A stretch of 39,945 bases of DNA from a virus. The notes beneath the pieces were generated by a model that was given only the letters and a program-made list of their open reading frames with translations, did no database searches and was not told the DNA's origin. The stretch lies in IMG/VR virus record IMGVR_UViG_3300047160_003852, positions 1 to 39,945 of that record; one strand, given 5' to 3'. The translations under genes were made by a program, and so were the position numbers. Below are positions 1-39,945 of the stretch, piece after piece (the stretch's first letter is position 1; each line of letters opens with the position of its first letter).

Positions 1-180
1 GGCGACGGCTCCGGCTACGGCTACGGCTACGGCTACGGCGACGGCTCCGGCGACGGCTCCGGCTACGGCTACGGCTACGGCTACGGCGACGGCTCCGGCG
101 ACGGCTCCGGCTACGGCTCCGGCTACGGCTACGGCGACGGCTACGGCGACGGCGACGGCTACGGCTACGGCGACGGCTCC
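1..180 (+). repeat. coding short tandem repeat GGC-[TAC|GAC|TCC]
   Basis: 60 consecutive codons alternate GGC with TAC/GAC/TCC, with no synonymous variation. Confidence 0.95.
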
Positions 181-531
181 AAAAAATATTGGGCTTCGCT
201 GCTGCCTGAATTTATCAAGAAATGGCCGATTGAGCAACAAAAGCGGGCCGCAAATTTGCAGAGTGAGGGTTGCACAATTGCCTATTGGCGCTCAGATAAA
301 AATGGAAAGCCATGCAACGGCGGTGCTGGAGAATCTGTAAAGCCAGGGCTCATCCAGAAAATATCCGGCCCGCTTAAACTTTGTGGTTCTCGCGCCCTCC
401 ACGCCACCGCTATACCGCCGCAATGGAAAGGTGAGCGCGTCTGGATCGTCGCACTGATTGGCGAAGTTAAATGGGAAGGCGATAAATGCGGCGCACTATG
501 CCGCGAAATCATCGGGGAATGCTTGCAATGA
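1..531 (+). CDS. 3' part of a (Gly-X)n low-complexity protein (X = Tyr/Asp/Ser) with a 116-aa Cys-containing C-terminal domain; the 5' part is 39638..39945 across the contig junction
   Basis: Frame 1 is open from nt 1 to TGA 529-531. Nt 1-180 encode 30 G-X dipeptides using only GGC/TAC/GAC/TCC. Nt 1-32 are identical to nt 39914-39945 and in phase with ATG 39638. The C-terminal KKYWASLLPEF...LKLCGSRALHATAIPPQWKGERVWIVALIGEV...CREIIGECLQ has ordinary globular composition. Confidence 0.8.
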   Translation, partial: GDGSGYGYGYGYGDGSGDGSGYGYGYGYGDGSGDGSGYGSGYGYGDGYGDGDGYGYGDGSKKYWASLLPEFIKKWPIEQQKRAANLQSEGCTIAYWRSDKNGKPCNGGAGESVKPGLIQKISGPLKLCGSRALHATAIPPQWKGERVWIVALIGEVKWEGDKCGALCREIIGECLQ

Positions 532-668
532 CCGAATATTCCTGGATGCAATCAGTTTGCTACGAACCCCGTCCCCTTCCCCGCCGTAAATACACATCCG
601 CATATATATCGCTATGCATTATAGCGGTTGAGGTTGGAACGCTTCTGGCTTTGATGGTGGGGAATTAG

Positions 669-1493
669 ATGGGCTGGGAACCAGTCACATATTGCCGGGA
701 ATGCGGTGAGCCCTTCGACGTTTACATGGCCCCTGAGGATCGCATCTGCGATTTCTGCAAAGAACTCTACGCCGACCGGGAATTAGACCTAGCGAAGGCA
801 ACCATTGCGAAGCATGAGGCGCCCAAGGCCACGCTTGATCCCCGCATCGAGGAAATCCGTACCCGCTACGGCTTGTCCCGCGATGACTTCTGGGAGCTAC
901 CTCAGAAGAAAGGCACATGGATTGCCAAACATGCCGCCCTGGAAGTTGCAGCGGCGAAAGCCAAGATCGTGTTCCTCGCCCCTCAAGTCTTGGAAGCGGA
1001 CGGTGCGGCCAAGAGTGTTGCGCTATGTGTGACCGGCACTCTCGATGAACGCAGCGAATGGAGTGTAGGCGAAGCCTCGCCGGCAAACAATAAGAATGCA
1101 TATCCGTATGCCATGGCAGAAAAGCGGGCCAAGGATCGCGTCATTCTGAAACTGATCGGGCTTCATGGCCTGATCTATTCGGAGGACGAGGCCGACGACT
1201 TCAAGCAGCCGACTAACGGCCATGCCAACGGACACGCCGCCACCGCGCCAGTAGATGAGGACGTAATGACCGGAACTCAAAACTGGATCAGCAAGCAGAA
1301 GGATATTCTGCTCGCCTATAACGACCTGGACGAGCTGACCTCGTGGCTCAAAAAGCACACGACCTACGGCACCCGTGAAGGCAATTGGGATCGTCCCACT
1401 CCGGGTTCAACATTGGACAAGCTGCTCAAATTCTCAGCCCCGATGTTTAACGACCTCAAAAGCTACTACTTCGAGAAATTGAGAGAAGTATGA
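669..1493 (+). CDS. hypothetical protein with N-terminal zinc ribbon; possible single-strand-annealing/DNA-binding protein (function tentative)
   Basis: SD-like GGTGGGG lies upstream of the ATG. N-terminus has CRECG...CDFC. The core ...GEASPANNKNAYPYAMAEKRAKDRVILKLIGL resembles the conserved strand-helix core of phage SSAPs. ATGA coupling to the NinB gene downstream. Confidence 0.55.
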   Translation: MGWEPVTYCRECGEPFDVYMAPEDRICDFCKELYADRELDLAKATIAKHEAPKATLDPRIEEIRTRYGLSRDDFWELPQKKGTWIAKHAALEVAAAKAKIVFLAPQVLEADGAAKSVALCVTGTLDERSEWSVGEASPANNKNAYPYAMAEKRAKDRVILKLIGLHGLIYSEDEADDFKQPTNGHANGHAATAPVDEDVMTGTQNWISKQKDILLAYNDLDELTSWLKKHTTYGTREGNWDRPTPGSTLDKLLKFSAPMFNDLKSYYFEKLREV

Positions 1494-1885
1494 GCCGCCA
1501 TCTCCTAATCCTATTCACCCCCAAAGACAGAGAACGCGCCTATCAATATATCATGCAGGCGCCGGTAGGAACTCGCATTGAGATAAAGGCCGTCAAGCGC
1601 AGCCTGCCGCAAAATGATCTTATGTGGTCAATGCTCAGTGAGATAGCGGTGCAGAAAGAACACCACGGCAGGAAGTACGCGCCCGATGTGTGGAAGGCGC
1701 TGTTCCTCAACGGCTGGCAAAAGGAAATATCCCTGATCCCGACGCTGGACGGATCAAGCCTATTGCCGCTCACGCGCACGTCCGATTTGAGCCGCGAGGA
1801 AATGACCTCGCTCATTGATTTTATAGATGCGTGGGCGGCGCAAAATGGCGTCAAGTTGAGCGGGCCGAATGAGGCTGCGGCATGA
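1490..1885 (+). CDS. ninB: NinB/Orf-family recombination mediator
   Basis: KRSLPQNDLMWSMLSEIAVQKEHHGRKYAPDVWKALF matches the lambda Orf/NinB signature (R-S-x-x-QN-x-x-W-x-x-L-x-D/E-I...HG...WK). ATGA overlaps on both sides. Confidence 0.8.
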   Translation: MSRHLLILFTPKDRERAYQYIMQAPVGTRIEIKAVKRSLPQNDLMWSMLSEIAVQKEHHGRKYAPDVWKALFLNGWQKEISLIPTLDGSSLLPLTRTSDLSREEMTSLIDFIDAWAAQNGVKLSGPNEAAA

Positions 1886-2343
1886 GGGCAATTCATCTTT
1901 CTGTCGATTACTTCAGGGACAGGTCCAACTTCCGCGAGAATGGCTGCTGGGAATGGCGCGGAGCGACGGGCGGCAACGGCTATGGTTCCATGCGGTCAAA
2001 GGGGAAAACCATCACCCCTCACCGAGCCGTCTATAAGCTCTTGCATGGCGAAATCCCCGCCGGGCTGCATGTCTGCCACCGCTGCGATAATCGCCTTTGC
2101 TGCAATCCCGACCACTTGTTCCTCGGTACTCGCAGCGACAACATGCAGGATTGCTTAACTAAGGGCCGCTTCAAGACCCCATTTGGGGCTGGCGAACGCG
2201 CTGGCCGCGCCAAACTCACGAATGAACAAGCCAAGGCGATCCGCAATGATCCGCGCCCTCATCGGGTAATCGCGGCAGAATATGGAGTGGACAAAAGCGC
2301 AATCGGCCATCTGAAACGCGGAAAGACTTGGGCTGGGATATGA
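1882..2343 (+). CDS. HNH_3-type homing endonuclease with C-terminal HTH
   Basis: CWEWRGATGGNGYG ... HVCHRCDNRLCCNPDHLFLGTRSDN is the HNH_3 signature. The C-terminal LTNEQAKAIR...VIAAEYGVDKSAIGHLKRGKTW is HTH-like. Confidence 0.85.
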   Translation: MRAIHLSVDYFRDRSNFRENGCWEWRGATGGNGYGSMRSKGKTITPHRAVYKLLHGEIPAGLHVCHRCDNRLCCNPDHLFLGTRSDNMQDCLTKGRFKTPFGAGERAGRAKLTNEQAKAIRNDPRPHRVIAAEYGVDKSAIGHLKRGKTWAGI

Positions 2344-2711
2344 GATCGACGCCTGAATGGGTCGGAGCCAGCGACGATCAGGTGCCCCCGCCAAGGGTAC
2401 GCTTGAGGGTCTTTGACGCGCTTGAGGGCCGTTGCCACATGTGCGCGCGGAAAATCATGACTGGCGAATATTGGGTTTGCGAACACATGGTTGCCATTTG
2501 CAACGGCGGTGAGAACCGAGAAAGCAACCTAAACCTTACTTGCCGCAACTGCGTCCCTCGCAAGAATGCCGCCGATCTAGCCGAAAAATCGCGCGTCAAC
2601 CGCATCCGTTCCAAGCATCTCGGCATCAAACAGACAAAGCGCCCATTTCCGAAATGCCACGATCCATGGGGCAAGGAACGCCGCGCCAATAGCAGGGATT
2701 CGGGCACATGA
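2340..2711 (+). CDS. HNH endonuclease (classic CxxC...H...N...CxxC type)
   Basis: RCHMCARKI...CEHMVAICNGGENRESNLNLTCRNCVPRKN. ATG 2340 forms an ATGA overlap with the upstream stop; an alternative ATG is at 2328. Confidence 0.75.
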   Translation: MRSTPEWVGASDDQVPPPRVRLRVFDALEGRCHMCARKIMTGEYWVCEHMVAICNGGENRESNLNLTCRNCVPRKNAADLAEKSRVNRIRSKHLGIKQTKRPFPKCHDPWGKERRANSRDSGT

Positions 2712-3081: not shown

Positions 3082-3306
3082 TTGTCGAACCGGACGCTGA
3101 TCGAAATTAATCACGACTTCGCCCATATGGTGAAAGAGAACCCGGAGCGGTTTGCCGAGGAACTTTATCGCTATCTCGGATCGGCCAGCGCTGAGAATGC
3201 AAGCAATCTGACCAAGTACGGCATTCGTCGCTTTGGCATTCGGCACCACTCGGAAGCCTTCGACATTAAATTCGGCTGCTTTAAAGCCGCCGAAACAGCC
3301 AGCTAG
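3082..3306 (+). CDS. hypothetical protein (74 aa, TTG start)
   Basis: AGGAGGG at 3070-3076 precedes TTG 3082. Protein-like composition (MSNRTLIEINHDFAHMVKENPERFAEELYRYLG...). Confidence 0.7.
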   Translation: MSNRTLIEINHDFAHMVKENPERFAEELYRYLGSASAENASNLTKYGIRRFGIRHHSEAFDIKFGCFKAAETAS

Positions 3307-3321
3307 GGAAAGGAGCCGTTC

Positions 3322-3498
3322 ATGCCAGAAATCTTCACAGCCTATGATGGTCACGGCGGCGCGATCCATCTTCACAAGTTGGAGCCGCATGAGATTGACG
3401 GCGACAAAAGGTTCTTTATCGAAGTGACTGGCGATCCGGCTTTGACGTGGCAACAGCTTGCACGACTGGCCGAAGCCGCTGGTCATCACGACAGATAA
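3322..3498 (+). CDS. hypothetical protein (58 aa)
   Basis: AAGGAG at 3310-3315 precedes ATG 3322. MPEIFTAYDGHGGAIHLHKLEPHEIDGDKRFFIEVTGDPALTWQQLARLAEAAGHHDR. Confidence 0.6.
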   Translation: MPEIFTAYDGHGGAIHLHKLEPHEIDGDKRFFIEVTGDPALTWQQLARLAEAAGHHDR

Positions 3499-3542
3499 GG
3501 AGCCAAATTTGCTGTGCAGCAAATATAGCGATTGGAGCAAAT

Positions 3543-3728
3543 ATGACCGTTGAAGAAATGTGCGAGAAGCTCAAGGACGTGAAGTCCTGGCAAGAGGCGT
3601 CGTCGCGGCAGCGCGGATCGTTTGGCCTTGAAATGAACGGGCGGCAATATGGCCAAGGCCCGCTCATCCAGGCATGGCTCTGGTTCGCGTCCGGCTGGAA
3701 TGCCGCCATTACTCAACCCCAAACCTGA
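3543..3728 (+). CDS. hypothetical protein (61 aa)
   Basis: Internal ATG of track ORF 3447..3728, preceded by GGAGCAAAT. MTVEEMCEKLKDVKSWQEASSRQRGSFGLEMNGRQYGQGPLIQAWLWFASGWNAAI. Confidence 0.6.
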   Translation: MTVEEMCEKLKDVKSWQEASSRQRGSFGLEMNGRQYGQGPLIQAWLWFASGWNAAITQPQT

Positions 3729-3738
3729 CGAGGGTCCA

Positions 3739-3933
3739 TTGCAGCTTTACAAAGTGTCTGAGGACAACGGCGCAAGCGAGCCGTGGAACCTCGAAAACCT
3801 GTGGCAGTTTGACGTTCAACTTCTCTTGAACCAATGGCTGCTGGGTGTGGCCCGCTGGAAGGGTTACGGCGGCGTCGTGTGGACGCTGCACCTTGGGCCT
3901 GTCGTTTTCAATTACTACCGCAACCACAATTAG
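3739..3933 (+). CDS. hypothetical protein (about 64 aa; start uncertain: TTG 3739 or ATG 3700)
   Basis: GAGGG lies 5 nt upstream of TTG 3739. Sequence ...QLYKVSEDNGASEPWNLENLWQFDVQLLLNQWLLGVARWKGYGGVVWTLHLGPVVFNYYRNHN. Confidence 0.5.
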   Translation: MQLYKVSEDNGASEPWNLENLWQFDVQLLLNQWLLGVARWKGYGGVVWTLHLGPVVFNYYRNHN

Positions 3934-34499: not shown

Positions 34500-35699
34500 C
34501 TATTGGCATATGGCGAGCATCTTCTGTCCTGTTTGGTTGGCTTCGGACAGCCGGCCGCCTGATTTGGAGCATAGGATCCTTACGCTGTCGAAGTGCGGGC
34601 GCAACAATGCCTCGAATTCTGGCCGGCTATACTCCTTGATGTGATGGGGACAGACCGGAATCGAGCCATTGCCGTTCTGGGGGGTGGAGATGAACAACTT
34701 TCCGCTTGGGGCCAGAAGACGGCGTGTTTCGGCTAGGAAGCGATCGGCCTCGATCGGCTGCAGATGCTCGATGAATTCCATGGCTGTGACGGCGTCGGCC
34801 GATGCTGATTCAACTGGCAAATCAAGGGCATTTCCCTTTTTATAGAACAGGTTCGGGTGCCTGTTGTTGCGGCGATTCCTTGCGATGAGACGGCCGTCTA
34901 GATCGACGGCTGTTACACATCTCGCTTTTGCAGCAAGAATGCGGGATCCATGGCCATTGCCGCAGGCTATGTCCAGGACGTGATCGGCTGGCTCGATTTC
35001 CGCCGCGGCGATTTCATAGCTTTCTGAGATGGGGTTGGAGATGCTGCTGGCATTGGTTTCGTCAACGCTGATCCGTTCGTCTTTGAATATGCCCGCGGCT
35101 AGGGCGCGGACATTATTACGGAATTCGTCGGTGTAGGCCGGGCTATGGGGATAAACTAGGGCTCGAAACCAGTCCCCCTCCGATTCGATATATGAGCAAA
35201 ATCTGGCAAGTCGCGCGGGTCGATCTTCAGCAGGATAACTATCAATCGCCTTCGCCACATGATCGAGCAGTTTGCGCTCGTATATTTTCCCCGCGAAATC
35301 CGGGCTGAAATCGTCAGGCATCGAGACATAATGGGCGTTGCTCTGGTGCAGAAATGCGAGCATGTTGGCGAGCAAGTCAGCGTCCGTGAAGCAATGCTGG
35401 CCCATGACATGGATGACCTCGTCCGCGCCCGTGACTTCAATCGCTTGGCGGCAGCGTTCGAGGACATTTTCGGCCGGGCCGAAGTGGCAATGAATCCTGT
35501 GCTTGTCAGCAAGCTTAAGGAACACTGTGTTGCCGCGGCAATCCGGAACGGCCAGGATGACTTGGTCGATTATGGGCATTGCCTTGAGCTTGGCGATGAC
35601 ATGCTCGATAACGAGCTTGCCATCCAGAGTAGCCAGGGAACGGTCTCTTGCGCCGTCCCAGCCGAGGTAATGGGCTTGGATGAGGCCGCAGACGGTCAT
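34500..35699 (-). CDS. fusion protein: N-terminal SpsF-like cytidylyltransferase-fold domain plus C-terminal class I SAM-dependent methyltransferase
   Basis: N-terminus: GLIQA...LATLDGKLVIEHVIAKLKAMPIIDQVILAVPD...HCHFGPAENVLERCRQAIEVTGADEVIHVMGQHCFTDADLL parallels SpsF/CTP_transf_3 (IQAR..LxGKPxIxHVIERxK..IDxVVVAT...FRGSExDVLxR...VRITGDCPLIDP) but with diverged catalytic positions. C-terminus: VLDIACGNGHGSRILA...VTAVDLD...ADAVTAMEFIEHL...LLAPSGKLFISTP carries methyltransferase motifs I-III. Confidence 0.65.
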   Translation of the reverse strand: MTVCGLIQAHYLGWDGARDRSLATLDGKLVIEHVIAKLKAMPIIDQVILAVPDCRGNTVFLKLADKHRIHCHFGPAENVLERCRQAIEVTGADEVIHVMGQHCFTDADLLANMLAFLHQSNAHYVSMPDDFSPDFAGKIYERKLLDHVAKAIDSYPAEDRPARLARFCSYIESEGDWFRALVYPHSPAYTDEFRNNVRALAAGIFKDERISVDETNASSISNPISESYEIAAAEIEPADHVLDIACGNGHGSRILAAKARCVTAVDLDGRLIARNRRNNRHPNLFYKKGNALDLPVESASADAVTAMEFIEHLQPIEADRFLAETRRLLAPSGKLFISTPQNGNGSIPVCPHHIKEYSRPEFEALLRPHFDSVRILCSKSGGRLSEANQTGQKMLAICQ

Positions 35700-37481: not shown

Positions 37482-37482
37482 T
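37454..37482 (+). terminator. terminator-like hairpin on the + strand (CAGCCCC-N7-GGGGCTG followed by TTCCTTTT)
   Basis: 7-bp GC-rich stem with a T-rich tail on the + strand only. Lies exactly at the 3' end of the - strand gcrA-like gene, so it may instead be an mRNA-stabilising or bidirectional element. Confidence 0.35.
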
Positions 37483-37934
37483 CAGAAGTATTGGCGGTCG
37501 TTCTTGCGCCCCCTGAATTGCTGCGGCTGCGTCCGGACATAGGCGATTGCCTGGTGAAACTCGCAATAAGGCCCGTGCATAACCGCCGGATGGCCACAAC
37601 ATTGGATTTCCAGGCCTTCACCATGGGGCCAGCGGCATAAGCCGAGCTTCGGAAAATCCCCCACAGGACCGCACGGCACGGGTTCCTCGGGCTTGTGGCT
37701 CGAGGGCATGGGCTTTGGCGCAGCTGGGGCGTGGGGATGACGCGGCAACCTCAGGCGCGGTTCCTGGCGCTTCTTGAGCTTCATCCGGGATACGAGCCCC
37801 AACACAGCCGATCTCGTGACGATAACGCCAAGTTGTGACTTTAGTTGGCTGGCCACTATCGACGCGCTGCAGCCTGAATCCCATGCTTCCCGGACCAGGG
37901 CCTTGATCTCGTCGTTATGGTGTTGGCCCGACAT
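37482..37934 (-). CDS. gcrA: GcrA-family cell-cycle regulator homologue (150 aa from ATG 37934)
   Basis: N-terminal W..E.IKALVREAWDSGCSASIVASQLKSQLGVIVTRSAVLGLVSRMKL and C-terminal CRWPHGEGLEIQCCGHPAVMHGPYCEFHQAIAY match the GcrA pattern (SASQIAxxLG..SRNAVIGKxHRL ... CxWPxG...FCG....PYCxxHxxxAY). GGGAGG lies 6 nt before ATG 37934. Confidence 0.85.
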   Translation of the reverse strand: MSGQHHNDEIKALVREAWDSGCSASIVASQLKSQLGVIVTRSAVLGLVSRMKLKKRQEPRLRLPRHPHAPAAPKPMPSSHKPEEPVPCGPVGDFPKLGLCRWPHGEGLEIQCCGHPAVMHGPYCEFHQAIAYVRTQPQQFRGRKNDRQYF

Positions 37935-38154
37935 GGGAATCCTCCCATCTTTTGTGCGCTGCAGCAATTATCATGGCGCCCTCGATCTCATTGGCTTTGC
38001 GGCGGATTACGGCCAGAGACCGCCCGGACATTGCAGCAATATCCCGGTAAGCCGCAGGCCGTTCATGGTAAACCAATGTTAAGGCCGCTTTTATCCACAG
38101 GATTTCATGGGGCGCGAAACCCACCCGGACCTGATCTCCGAATCTGTCAATCAT
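37915..38154 (-). CDS. hypothetical protein with HTH-like segment (79 aa)
   Basis: 8-nt overlap upstream. AAYRDIAAMSGRSLAVIRRKANEIEG is HTH-like. Confidence 0.55.
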   Translation of the reverse strand: MIDRFGDQVRVGFAPHEILWIKAALTLVYHERPAAYRDIAAMSGRSLAVIRRKANEIEGAMIIAAAHKRWEDSHVGPTP

Positions 38155-38467: not shown

Positions 38468-38647
38468 TTAGTTCATTGTTGAAATCTCTGAAGCCAGAAG
38501 TTCCATCAGCTTAAGAACGGGCCGAGAGGGCTTGGCGCCCCGCTCCAACCTCGAGACGGTTCCTTGGTTCACGCCCAGCCGTTCCGCCATCTCGGCCTGT
38601 GTTAGCCCAAGCCTGGTCCTGATAATCTCGCAGCGGGTCTTTTTCAT
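38468..38647 (-). CDS. XRE/Cro-type helix-turn-helix regulator (59 aa), first gene of the - strand arm
   Basis: MKKTRCEIIRTRLGLTQAEMAERLGVNQGTVSRLERGAKPSRPVLKLMELL is a canonical HTH_3 pattern (LTQxxxAxxLGVxxxxVSRxERG). Divergent from the + strand arm. Confidence 0.85.
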   Translation of the reverse strand: MKKTRCEIIRTRLGLTQAEMAERLGVNQGTVSRLERGAKPSRPVLKLMELLASEISTMN

Positions 38648-38776: not shown

Positions 38777-38998
38777 ATGGCCCAGTTCTCTTGGAAAAAC
38801 GCCCCGGACCTGATGGACCGGCTTTCATCGACCCAGAACGCCCCCTGCAATTGCGTCATCGACATTATGACATTTGCGGGCTTCTGCACTTCACGCGAAC
38901 AGCTTGAGACACATGTTTCCCGCTACGAAGCGCGCGAAGCTGCGGCCATCCATGCCGCCGCCTACAAGCGTGCCGGCCGGAGGTCCGCCAATGTCTAA
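38777..38998 (+). CDS. hypothetical protein (73 aa), first gene of the + strand arm
   Basis: Strong SD. MAQFSWKNAPDLMDRLSSTQNAPCNCVIDIMTFAGFCTSREQLETHVSRYEAREAAAIHAAAYKRAG. Confidence 0.65.
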   Translation: MAQFSWKNAPDLMDRLSSTQNAPCNCVIDIMTFAGFCTSREQLETHVSRYEAREAAAIHAAAYKRAGRRSANV

Positions 38999-39278
38999 CG
39001 TGAGCCCCTTCCTCGACCAGCCATTGCGCTCCGAATCCGAAGCAAGACACGACCGCCATCTATCCATGATGGAAGTGATCCGCAGGGCTGCGAAGGCGGA
39101 AGCCCAGCCTCAATACAAGCCGTGTCCTTGGTGCGGAACCGACGCGCCGCTTCCAACACGAGAAGTTGGCATGCTCGTCTACACAATCAGGTGTGGCAAT
39201 GAGGATTGCTACGCACAGCCGTCAGTATATGGCGCGACTATAGAGCAGGCTTGGAGCCGCTGGAACTCCCGCGCATGA
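38991..39278 (+). CDS. Lar-family restriction-alleviation-like protein (95 aa)
   Basis: GGAGG lies 7 nt before ATG 38991. KPCPWCGTDAPLPTREVGMLVYTIRCGNEDCYAQPSVYGATIEQAWSRWNSRA fits the Lar-type pattern (CPFCG ... C..C ... A..xWNxR at the C-terminus). Confidence 0.55.
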   Translation: MSNVSPFLDQPLRSESEARHDRHLSMMEVIRRAAKAEAQPQYKPCPWCGTDAPLPTREVGMLVYTIRCGNEDCYAQPSVYGATIEQAWSRWNSRA

Positions 39279-39323: not shown

Positions 39324-39635
39324 ATGGTATCGCATCCTTCACGCGAATCAAATGGCAAAGAGCTTTATGTCGTCGTTACGACTGCACATCGCGGCGTGTT
39401 TGGCGGCTATGCAACCGAGACAAACAGCAAGACAATCAATTTGCGGCTTGTCCGCAATTGTCTCTACTGGCCTTCGAATGTCGGCGGCTTTGTCGGGCTC
39501 GCAACATCTGGTCCGAATAGCCAAACCAAGATTGGCCCCGCCGTCGAAACTATGACGTTGCATGACGTGACGGCAGTTCTCAAATGCTCGCCCGATGCCG
39601 AGAAGGCTTGGGTTAGCGCGAACTGGAAGTTCTAG
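39324..39635 (+). CDS. hypothetical conserved-looking phage protein (103 aa)
   Basis: …ELYVVVTTAHRGVFGGYATETNSKTINLRLVRNCLYWPSNVGGFVGLATSGPN… has protein-like composition. Its stop lies 2 nt before the next ATG. Confidence 0.6.
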   Translation: MVSHPSRESNGKELYVVVTTAHRGVFGGYATETNSKTINLRLVRNCLYWPSNVGGFVGLATSGPNSQTKIGPAVETMTLHDVTAVLKCSPDAEKAWVSANWKF

Positions 39636-39637
39636 CC

Positions 39638-39945
39638 ATGCAAGCGGCCCAAGTCCTTTTTGGGGAAGTGCCCGAGCATTTTAACGGCTACGGCGACGGC
39701 TCCGGCTACGGCGACGGCTCCGGCTACGGCTACGGCTCCGGCGACGGCTCCGGCTCCGGCTACGGCTACGGCTACGGCGACGGCTCCGGCTACGGCTACG
39801 GCTACGGCTACGGCTACGGCTACGGCGACGGCTACGGCTACGGCGACGGCTCCGGCGACGGCTCCGGCTCCGGCTACGGCTCCGGCTACGGCTACGGCTA
39901 CGGCTACGGCTACGGCGACGGCTCCGGCTACGGCTACGGCTACGG
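39638..39945 (+). CDS. 5' part of the (Gly-X)n low-complexity protein (continues at nt 33 after removing the 32-nt terminal overlap)
   Basis: ATG 39638 lies 2 nt after the upstream TAG. MQAAQVLFGEVPEHFN is followed by an uninterrupted G-[Y/D/S] repeat to the window end. Confidence 0.8.
   Translation, partial: MQAAQVLFGEVPEHFNGYGDGSGYGDGSGYGYGSGDGSGSGYGYGYGDGSGYGYGYGYGYGYGDGYGYGDGSGDGSGSGYGSGYGYGYGYGYGDGSGYGYGY
39686..39945 (+). repeat. coding short tandem repeat GGC-[TAC|GAC|TCC]
   Basis: Same single-codon-per-residue repeat as nt 1-180. The last 32 nt equal the first 32 nt of the window. Confidence 0.95.

Follow-up and report, generated by a model that had tools for sequence, protein, structure and literature searches.

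The window, as we call the whole 39,945-nt stretch of viral DNA that was analysed (positions 1 to 39,945 of IMG/VR record IMGVR_UViG_3300047160_003852), carries a gene that is split between its two ends and encodes a tract in which Gly alternates strictly with a second residue, X (Tyr, Asp or Ser); we refer to it as the G-X gene. The two ends share an exact 32-nt overlap (39914..39945 = 1..32), and joining 39638..39945 to 33..531 with the overlap removed gives 807 nt in frame (268 aa and a stop codon); a plain end-to-end join with the overlap kept is out of frame. The joined protein consists of a 16-aa leader, 136 residues of strict Gly-X (68 dipeptides) and a 116-aa domain, with the same coordinates and content that a preliminary description of this DNA had proposed. 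The stop codon of a DUF6948 gene lies 2 nt before its start. Our comparisons show that a conserved early cassette of two genes recurs in soil bacteria, carried by temperate phages and prophages, that the G-X gene is its second member, and that it belongs to a real, conserved, mainly viral gene family with a DUF7666-like domain. The cassette occupies the following positions in the window, with repeats defined by Tandem Repeats Finder (TRF).

39324..39635, plus strand: DUF6948 partner gene, 103 aa (Pfam PF22253, E 1.1e-21)
39638..39685, plus strand: start codon and 16-aa leader MQAAQVLFGEVPEHFN of the G-X gene (translation)
39686..39945, plus strand: 5' part of the (Gly-X)n tract, a GGC-KMC hexanucleotide satellite that reaches the contig end (translation, codon and repeat analysis)
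1..180, plus strand: 3' part of the tract, in which bases 1..32 duplicate 39914..39945 (translation, TRF)
39686..39945 plus 33..180, plus strand: joined tract, 136 residues
181..528, plus strand: C-terminal 116-aa domain with six Cys, stop codon at 529..531 (translation)

The terminal 32-mer occurs four times in the window (at 1, 49, 39776 and 39914), so the join is not unique, and since any join in hexamer register stays in frame, preservation of the frame does not validate the assembly. The values of 136 tract residues and 268 aa are one solution, with a length given by the 32-nt join: a join at another copy of the 32-mer yields a shorter tract, and if copies were collapsed the true tract is longer. 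The length of 268 aa, as first described, cannot be fixed from the contig, and with four copies of the 32-mer the end overlap proves neither circular closure nor tract length, so we rejected both uses of it. Nonetheless, the two contig ends are truly adjacent, given that the gene order across the junction (DUF6948, then the G-X gene) matches 65 of the 68 other loci with enough upstream sequence, in which the G-X gene directly follows the DUF6948 open reading frame (ORF). Assemblies break systematically in the tract: contigs are cut inside it in 25 of 95 related loci and in four more found via the partner gene (L095, L097-L099), including a 39.7-kb contig (L095) that ends in the tract at the same place as the window. 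Consequently, the lengths of database proteins are biased short. These breaks and the non-unique 32-mer are what could be said for an assembler having made the tract, or the fusion of the window ends. As regards the existence of the gene, this explanation is extremely improbable, because the same architecture stands inside long contigs and inside a 7.7-Mb Bradyrhizobium record (CP120699.1), and the conserved gene order speaks against it as well; existence is largely settled and the uncertainty is limited to length. The loci concerned are listed here.

Cut in the tract: L018, L020, L024, L027, L032, L034, L038, L045, L047, L049, L050, L053-L057
Cut in the tract, continued: L059, L066, L080, L084-L088, L091, L094, L095, L097-L099

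Using the C-terminal domain as query, we retrieved 37 proteins (50-73% identity), two of which are Bradyrhizobium entries named 'hypothetical protein'. Nearly all of these close homologues share one layout, comprising a leader, a G-[YDS] tract of varying length and the domain. An exhaustive profile search yielded 294 clusters at 50% identity. Architectures were counted in 187 family proteins: 92 carry the N-terminal G-X tract, 41 have the domain first and then a pentapeptide array (confirmed as PF00805), and the remainder are fragments or have other layouts. The tract is maintained in homologues down to about 47% identity, with strict Gly-X alternation in most relatives; P0167 and P0070, with GGGYGGG-type tracts, depart from it, and in some full-length relatives the tract has decayed or is absent (L103; 'other' class). 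In addition, about half of the 69 relatives with a leader of 8-40 aa have the leader motif hydrophobic-[R/F/W]-G-x-x-P in common ([RFWKQSHY]G..[PA] in 35 of 69). Relatives are encoded in 110 IMG/VR stretches versus 12 loci among 185,579 species, each represented by a single genome, showing that the family is mainly viral. The 12 cellular loci belong to Bradyrhizobium, Rhodopseudomonas and assorted metagenome-assembled genomes (several phyla), and the one inside CP120699.1, from Bradyrhizobium sp. ORS 86, is a prophage copy at 4,090,528-4,103,127. A tblastn search of 50,697 GenBank phage records found no close relative of the domain in cultured phages, from which the window phage is itself distant (large terminase at ≤43% identity).

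The preliminary description knew of no characterised phage early protein of this kind, and our searches found no characterised counterpart: those of the domain sequence against Pfam, INPHARED, PHROGs, PADLOC, NCBIfam and PDB were uninformative (the PDB profile search gave noise only, E ≥ 0.09). The homologues carry the repeat and the domain family is uncharacterised, so neither of the outcomes that the description had named as refuting it was observed. Nothing relevant to DUF6948, DUF7666, DUF5758 or glycine-tyrosine repeats in phages appeared in the papers searched. The sole Pfam match of the protein, TrAA12, falls on the low-complexity tract and was treated as compositional.

An AlphaFold2 (AF2) model of the domain (predicted local distance difference test [pLDDT] 93.9) shows two helices followed by a seven-strand beta core. 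When the family alignment (A2, 30 sequences) was compared by hhalign with an alignment whose members carry DUF7666 (A4; PF24703; P0308-P0319), the two matched over 77 columns (probability 96.2%, E 2.3e-9), with the motifs PG...GPL.LC..(A/G)LHA and DK..A..R in register. The top Foldseek matches of the model in BFVD were DUF7666, phage pentapeptide and giant-virus ankyrin-repeat proteins (probability 1.0, E about 1e-3), at template-modelling (TM) scores of about 0.56 (range 0.5-0.6). Profile and predicted fold together identify the domain as a divergent DUF7666 with an added helical N-terminal extension. The window domain is below the Pfam threshold for PF24703 (no match at E ≤ 1), the Pfam DUF7666 hidden Markov model is a weak top match in three of 30 relatives (best E 0.0084), comparisons of the family profile with single DUF7666 or DUF5758 sequences by hhalign were not significant (E about 0.3), and Foldseek against PDB returned nothing below E = 2.9 for the domain model.

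Thirteen positions are invariant in A2 (G63, P64, L73, H74, A75, P79, W82, G84, R86, W88, K102, R108 and E109). The six Cys, which had been presented as a mark of the domain, do not hold as a family feature: at least 90% of sequences retain C68 and most retain C114; the other four (C31, C45, C103 and C107) are lineage-specific, being found only in the closest subclade. We therefore rejected the idea that a metal or disulfide domain with six Cys characterises the family. DUF7666-type domains habitually adjoin repeat arrays, namely ankyrin repeats in giant viruses, pentapeptides in the domain-first relatives (hereafter, class B), AAWDAAR-like repeats in A4 and the Gly-X satellite here. The A4 proteins, which are encoded in similar phage early regions, have an AAW(D/A)AAR(D/A)AAW-type array after the domain, and one locus (L103) encodes both an AAWDAAR-type DUF7666 protein (1151..1786) and a DUF6948 plus G-X cassette. 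In another protein, P0163, the ALHAT-type domain is accompanied by a short run of pentapeptides and, at the C-terminus, by DUF5758 (E 2.9e-22), which carries a comparable C..GIH.F motif; a single superfamily may unite DUF5758 and DUF7666.

The DUF6948 and G-X genes frequently overlap in other loci. The AF2 model of DUF6948 (pLDDT 90.3) matched Sm/LSm chains in nearly all of the Foldseek top 50 from PDB (probability about 1.0, TM 0.4-0.55), at marginal E-values (4.5e-3 to 3e-2) for a small-barrel fold that is very common. With caution, we consider DUF6948 a predicted Sm/LSm-like small beta-barrel. The persistence of the cassette was sampled in four loci (L100-L103) reached from three DUF6948 relatives at 45-50% identity. 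Three of them keep the downstream G-X/DUF7666-like gene, which is intact in L100, has a decayed tract in L103 and is frameshifted in L101; in the fourth (L102), just a repeat is left, upstream of a DnaB-like ORF. This L102 ORF (2382..3980, downstream of DUF6948) opens with (VT)n/(VP)n, a repeat of two codons, and runs into the DnaB-like helicase; the G-X gene may have been lost, with its G-X-type satellite perhaps persisting as this repeat in a different frame. The L101 copy (3287..3907), in a chromosomal prophage-like region of a 1.19-Mb contig, is apparently a pseudogene: part of its tract is read as (RV)n and (GT/GP)n, and its domain goes out of frame about 33 residues in.

Four database proteins (P0104, P0135, P0158 and P0039) are chimeras, in which the N-terminal half of DUF6948 (about 45-60 of 96 profile positions) is joined directly to the DUF7666-like domain, whole or in part. 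P0104, P0135 and P0158 lack leader and tract, and their junctions lie near a '..YW.S' stretch common to both proteins; P0039 retains a short tract and the whole domain. The chimeras may be real deletions or misassemblies.

Based on codon usage, the tract stands apart from the rest of the window. It is written with 68 GGC, 35 TAC, 17 TCC and 16 GAC codons and zero synonymous alternatives, as the preliminary description had noted in calling the DNA a near-perfect satellite, and TRF assigns it a period of 6 (GGCTAC). Given the window's own codon usage, this uniformity has a log10 P of -53.6 (about 1e-54); the rest of the gene and the large ORFs of the phage use mixed codons (TAT 65%, GAT 53%, GGC 50%, TCC 20%). 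The pattern GGCKMC x3 has 69 matches in the window versus 0 in shuffles. A higher-order unit of 48 nt, GGCGACGGCTCCGGCTACGGCTACGGCTACGGCTACGGCGACGGCTCC, is repeated at 1..178 (3.7 copies, 95% identity by TRF; X positions D-S-Y-Y-Y-Y-D-S) and suggests recent block duplications. The X residues of the window tract are 35 Y, 17 S and 16 D (Asp is 12% of all tract residues), with no Ala, Gln or Asn and a net charge of -16. A role of the tract in RNA structure was rejected, its RNA folding less stably than all 200 shuffles (z = +4.0).

The same uniformity is found across the family. Among 84 related loci with at least eight dipeptides, one Gly codon makes up ≥95% of the tract in 82 (by locus, GGC in 69, GGG in 13 and GGT in two). 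Pooled X codons are dominated by TAC (1100), TCC (875) and GAC (696), and synonymous ones are scarce (TAT 32, TCT 34, GAT 21, TCG 9, AGC/AGT 0), with a single locus (L026) in which all three have changed to TAT/GAT/TCT alongside GGC. Because the flanking domains of different loci now share about 47-66% amino-acid identity, the uniformity of the tracts is not due to recent common descent. These codon patterns indicate continual turnover of units within each array, i.e., concerted evolution. Of the two alternatives offered earlier for the tract, 'young or homogenised', homogenised therefore holds and young does not: the tract is an old family hallmark, the DNA of which is continually renewed.

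Tract length varies between loci that are otherwise the same. Where the 345-nt domain DNA is 100% identical, tracts measure 102 versus 42 aa (L039/L043), 46 versus 48 aa (L069/L070), 68 versus at least 96 aa (L051/L053) and at least 140 versus 158 aa (L057/L063), and tracts also differ between contigs with an identical DUF6948 protein (L095/L096, L098/L099). With a 6-nt unit, each change of length stays in frame, and frameshifted copies were seen only as apparent pseudogenes (L101); the in-frame expansion and contraction anticipated in the preliminary description is borne out by these loci. The 70 complete tracts are 12 to 158 aa long (median 70), among which the window tract, at 136 aa as joined, would rank second longest. 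Very short tracts (6-10 dipeptides) are common among relatives, and the closest homologue (P0001, 73% identity) has just seven dipeptides.

The composition of X appears constrained. Minor X residues are Ala (GCC), Cys (TGC), Phe (TTC), His (CAC) and Asn (AAC), and since their codons are mostly one base from TAC (all except Ala, which is two steps away), GGC-TAC (Gly-Tyr) is a candidate for the founding unit. The other one-step TAC mutants (pooled counts: His 6, Asn 6, Phe 9, Cys 15) are 50-100 times rarer than Asp and Ser, which also outnumber synonymous TAT even though both arise from TAC by transversion. As mutation bias fails to explain this excess, the Tyr/Asp/Ser mix looks selected. All three residues are present in 76 of the 84 loci, with mean X fractions of 0.41 (Y), 0.25 (D) and 0.30 (S), and the mix recurs in arrays based on GGG, GGT and TAT/GAT/TCT. 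The order of neighbouring units is random (observed/expected 0.88-1.21). Selection thus appears to act on composition, not on sequence.

A neutral or selfish satellite sitting in a tolerant linker, where any soluble filler would suffice and all function would reside in the DUF7666-like domain, could also produce a random unit order and a range of 12 to 158 aa without a preferred length, and it would accommodate the decayed or absent tracts of some relatives and the seven dipeptides of the closest homologue. We nevertheless consider it unlikely. Such a filler does not account for the tract being retained by 92 of 187 family proteins and by homologues as distant as about 47% identity, for the strong enrichment of Asp and Ser units over other one-step mutants and synonymous variants, or for the recurrence of the Y/D/S mix on different codon backgrounds; moreover, relatives swap the tract for other repeat arrays, not for nothing.

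Our preferred reading, put forward tentatively and at a little under an even chance, is that the G-X protein is a host-interaction accessory protein in which a flexible arm, selected for its composition, tethers a conserved effector domain. The satellite consists of the GGC-TAC hexanucleotide and its one-base variants GGC-GAC and GGC-TCC, and slippage or unequal recombination very probably resizes and homogenises it faster than point mutations build up, so that length and order drift and the reading frame is always kept. Judging from composition, the product would be a flexible, multivalent, acidic-aromatic arm that is probably disordered, in which Tyr may provide contact points and Asp and Ser solubility. 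Through it, the conserved domain, perhaps along with the leader motif, would be tethered or presented to a host or phage macromolecule early in infection, with the G-X protein acting together with its Sm-like DUF6948 partner. In relatives, pentapeptide, ankyrin or AAWDAAR arrays would fill the same architectural role beside the domain.

Several points weigh against this tethered-arm reading. The evidence on the family consists of sequences and predicted models, and the probable disorder of the tract is read from its composition. The Sm-like assignment of the partner depends on marginal Foldseek E-values for a very common fold, PADLOC and PHROGs gave no tie to defence or anti-defence, and some of the length differences between near-identical loci may be due to short-read assembly collapse. 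Finally, with a length range of more than 10-fold and with decayed or absent tracts, any length-dependent function must be loose.

A more specific role for the tyrosines would be that of a FUS-type condensate scaffold, in which GYG triplets drive phase separation or gelling, the Sm-like partner may bring RNA, and tract length tunes the process; phase separation, which the preliminary description had brought up, does fit the composition. The window protein contains 35 [G/S]Y[G/S] triplets, composition rather than sequence is conserved, the combination of Tyr with Gly, Ser and Asp follows a sticker-and-spacer pattern, and the partner is predicted to adopt an Sm/LSm-like fold; in eukaryotes, RNA granules are promoted by LSm proteins that carry low-complexity tails. 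The tract, however, lacks Gln and Asn and carries a net charge of -16, the short tracts that are frequent in relatives leave few contact points, and the Sm-like call is weak, which together make a condensate scaffold distinctly unlikely. We give low probability to a speculative variant: an evolvable 'sticker-and-spacer' early protein, whose satellite would retune the number of Tyr contacts, and with it condensate or binding strength, within very few generations, and which would build or disrupt a ribonucleoprotein-type assembly with its Sm-like, possibly RNA-binding partner. If true, it would be a bacterial-virus counterpart of eukaryotic LSm/low-complexity granule systems, with DNA slippage as the tuning knob.

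Strict alternation over 136 residues, shared by most relatives, might instead point to a silk-like former of fibres or beta-sheets, in which Gly-X stretches stack. We regard this as highly improbable, since alternation follows automatically from a hexamer DNA unit and is broken in P0167 and P0070, the frequent Asp should oppose sheet packing, and an early cytoplasmic phage protein has no obvious need of a fibre.

The cassette lies in a rightward early region, downstream of a divergent helix-turn-helix (HTH) repressor-like gene, and the structural genes of the window are on the minus strand. Its neighbours are given below.

38468..38647, minus strand: HTH repressor-like gene
38874..39278: Lar-like restriction-alleviation gene, with the G-X gene about 360 nt downstream
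528..668, plus strand: 46-aa ORF, in ATGA overlap with the G-X stop codon, with a hydrophobic C-terminal half and no family match
669..1493, plus strand: 274-aa ORF with N-terminal CxxC...CxxC motifs and no Pfam, PHROG or PADLOC family
1490..1885: NinB gene, downstream of the G-X gene
1882..2343 and 2328..2711, plus strand: two HNH endonuclease genes (HNH_3 and HNH) with a 16-nt mutual overlap, directly after NinB
37482..37967, minus strand: GcrA-like cell-cycle regulator gene (PF07750, E 2e-15) in the lysogeny/early control region
34500..35699, minus strand: 399-aa ORF with weak methyltransferase-like PHROG matches (E about 3e-5), just before the small and large terminase genes

The position in the early arm agrees with the preliminary description, with the repressor gene upstream, Lar alongside, and NinB and the two HNH genes downstream. 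Its 'recombination module' stands as regards NinB; the 274-aa ORF, which has no family match, does not bear it out. In the Bradyrhizobium ORS 86 prophage, as in a Joint Genome Institute (JGI) contig, the cassette is surrounded by methyltransferase, HNH, ParB-like and primase genes. The label of early accessory gene is supported for the G-X gene. The 46-aa ORF is a possible small membrane protein, judging from its sequence. The GcrA-like gene fits an alphaproteobacterial host, and one is also near the cassette in L095.

The nearby Lar-like gene bears on a further explanation, that the acidic-aromatic tract, standing in for the pentapeptide beta-helix of relatives, is a nucleic-acid mimic or anti-restriction decoy that sequesters a DNA-binding host defence protein. 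The pentapeptide beta-helix mimics DNA in MfpA and Qnr, and at least 41 relatives join the same domain to bona fide pentapeptide arrays, with weak similarity to Qnr and MfpA in NCBIfam. We consider a decoy very unlikely: the tract is acidic, but Asp makes up just 12% of its residues in the window, there is no sign of a rigid shape and no match to known anti-defence families, and in L001 and L002 Lar is not a neighbour.

The tract is a clean natural case in which synonymous sites are uniform and composition, rather than sequence or length, is apparently selected, across more than 80 independent phage loci. This signature separates 'functional low complexity' from junk and can be used to find similar genes. 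The cassette is common in uncultured soil phages and completely uncharacterised, and because DUF7666-type domains occur in giant viruses and many phages, knowing the role of one member would allow a large portion of viral dark matter to be annotated. Bradyrhizobium sp. ORS 86, with its prophage copy, offers an experimental entry point. There is also a warning for database users, as about a quarter of related contigs end in the tract: 'circular' calls from short end overlaps inside it, and the database lengths of G-X proteins, are untrustworthy.

Compared to known systems, the window protein shares with the DUF7666 (PF24703) proteins of phages, giant viruses and bacteria a homologous beta core, a similar predicted fold, the motifs ..PG..(7-8)..GPL.lC..(G/A)LHA.. 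and ..DK..A..R, and the habitual junction to a repeat array. It differs in falling below the Pfam threshold, in its extra two-helix N-terminal extension, and in the array, which is a (Gly-X)n satellite N-terminal to the domain and not an ankyrin, pentapeptide or AAWDAAR repeat. Class B relatives (domain, PF00805 array and C-terminal IPGW...G.L.K) have the same ALHAT-type domain (profile E about 1e-21 to 1e-36) and likewise combine it with a long repeat and a short terminal motif, whereas their domain comes first and their repeat is of the folded beta-helix type. The window protein has no Pfam match to the pentapeptide A(D/N)LXX repeats (PF00805), and its tract has a period of two residues. RTX calcium-binding repeats (GGxGxDxUx) were rejected, given the lack of a GG dipeptide and of a period of nine in the tract.

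Low-complexity proteins of the FUS type resemble the tract in its 35 GYG triplets within 136 residues and in the conservation of composition rather than order; the G-X protein, in contrast, comes from a bacterial virus, has no Gln/Asn and 12% Asp, and owes its strict two-residue period to the DNA unit. The crystalline repeats of Bombyx mori fibroin (GAGAGS/GAGAGY) likewise alternate strictly as Gly-X for upwards of 100 residues, and Ser and Tyr occur at X there as well. Here, however, X is Tyr/Asp/Ser and not mostly Ala, and the protein is intracellular, early-expressed and fused to a globular domain. In-frame simple-sequence coding repeats of bacterial and phage surface or host-interaction genes also vary in length between otherwise identical alleles, and the codon monotony of the tract is consistent with slippage and concerted evolution of that kind. 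Unlike these surface genes, the G-X gene is an early cytoplasmic gene in which synonymous sites are more uniform than non-synonymous ones. A phase-variable contingency locus was rejected, since a 6-nt unit is divisible by 3 and allows no on/off switching of the frame. What sets the gene apart from these systems is the combination of a satellite-encoded Gly-Tyr/Asp/Ser tract with a near-obligatory DUF6948 partner, within the uncharacterised theme of a DUF7666 domain plus a repeat array.

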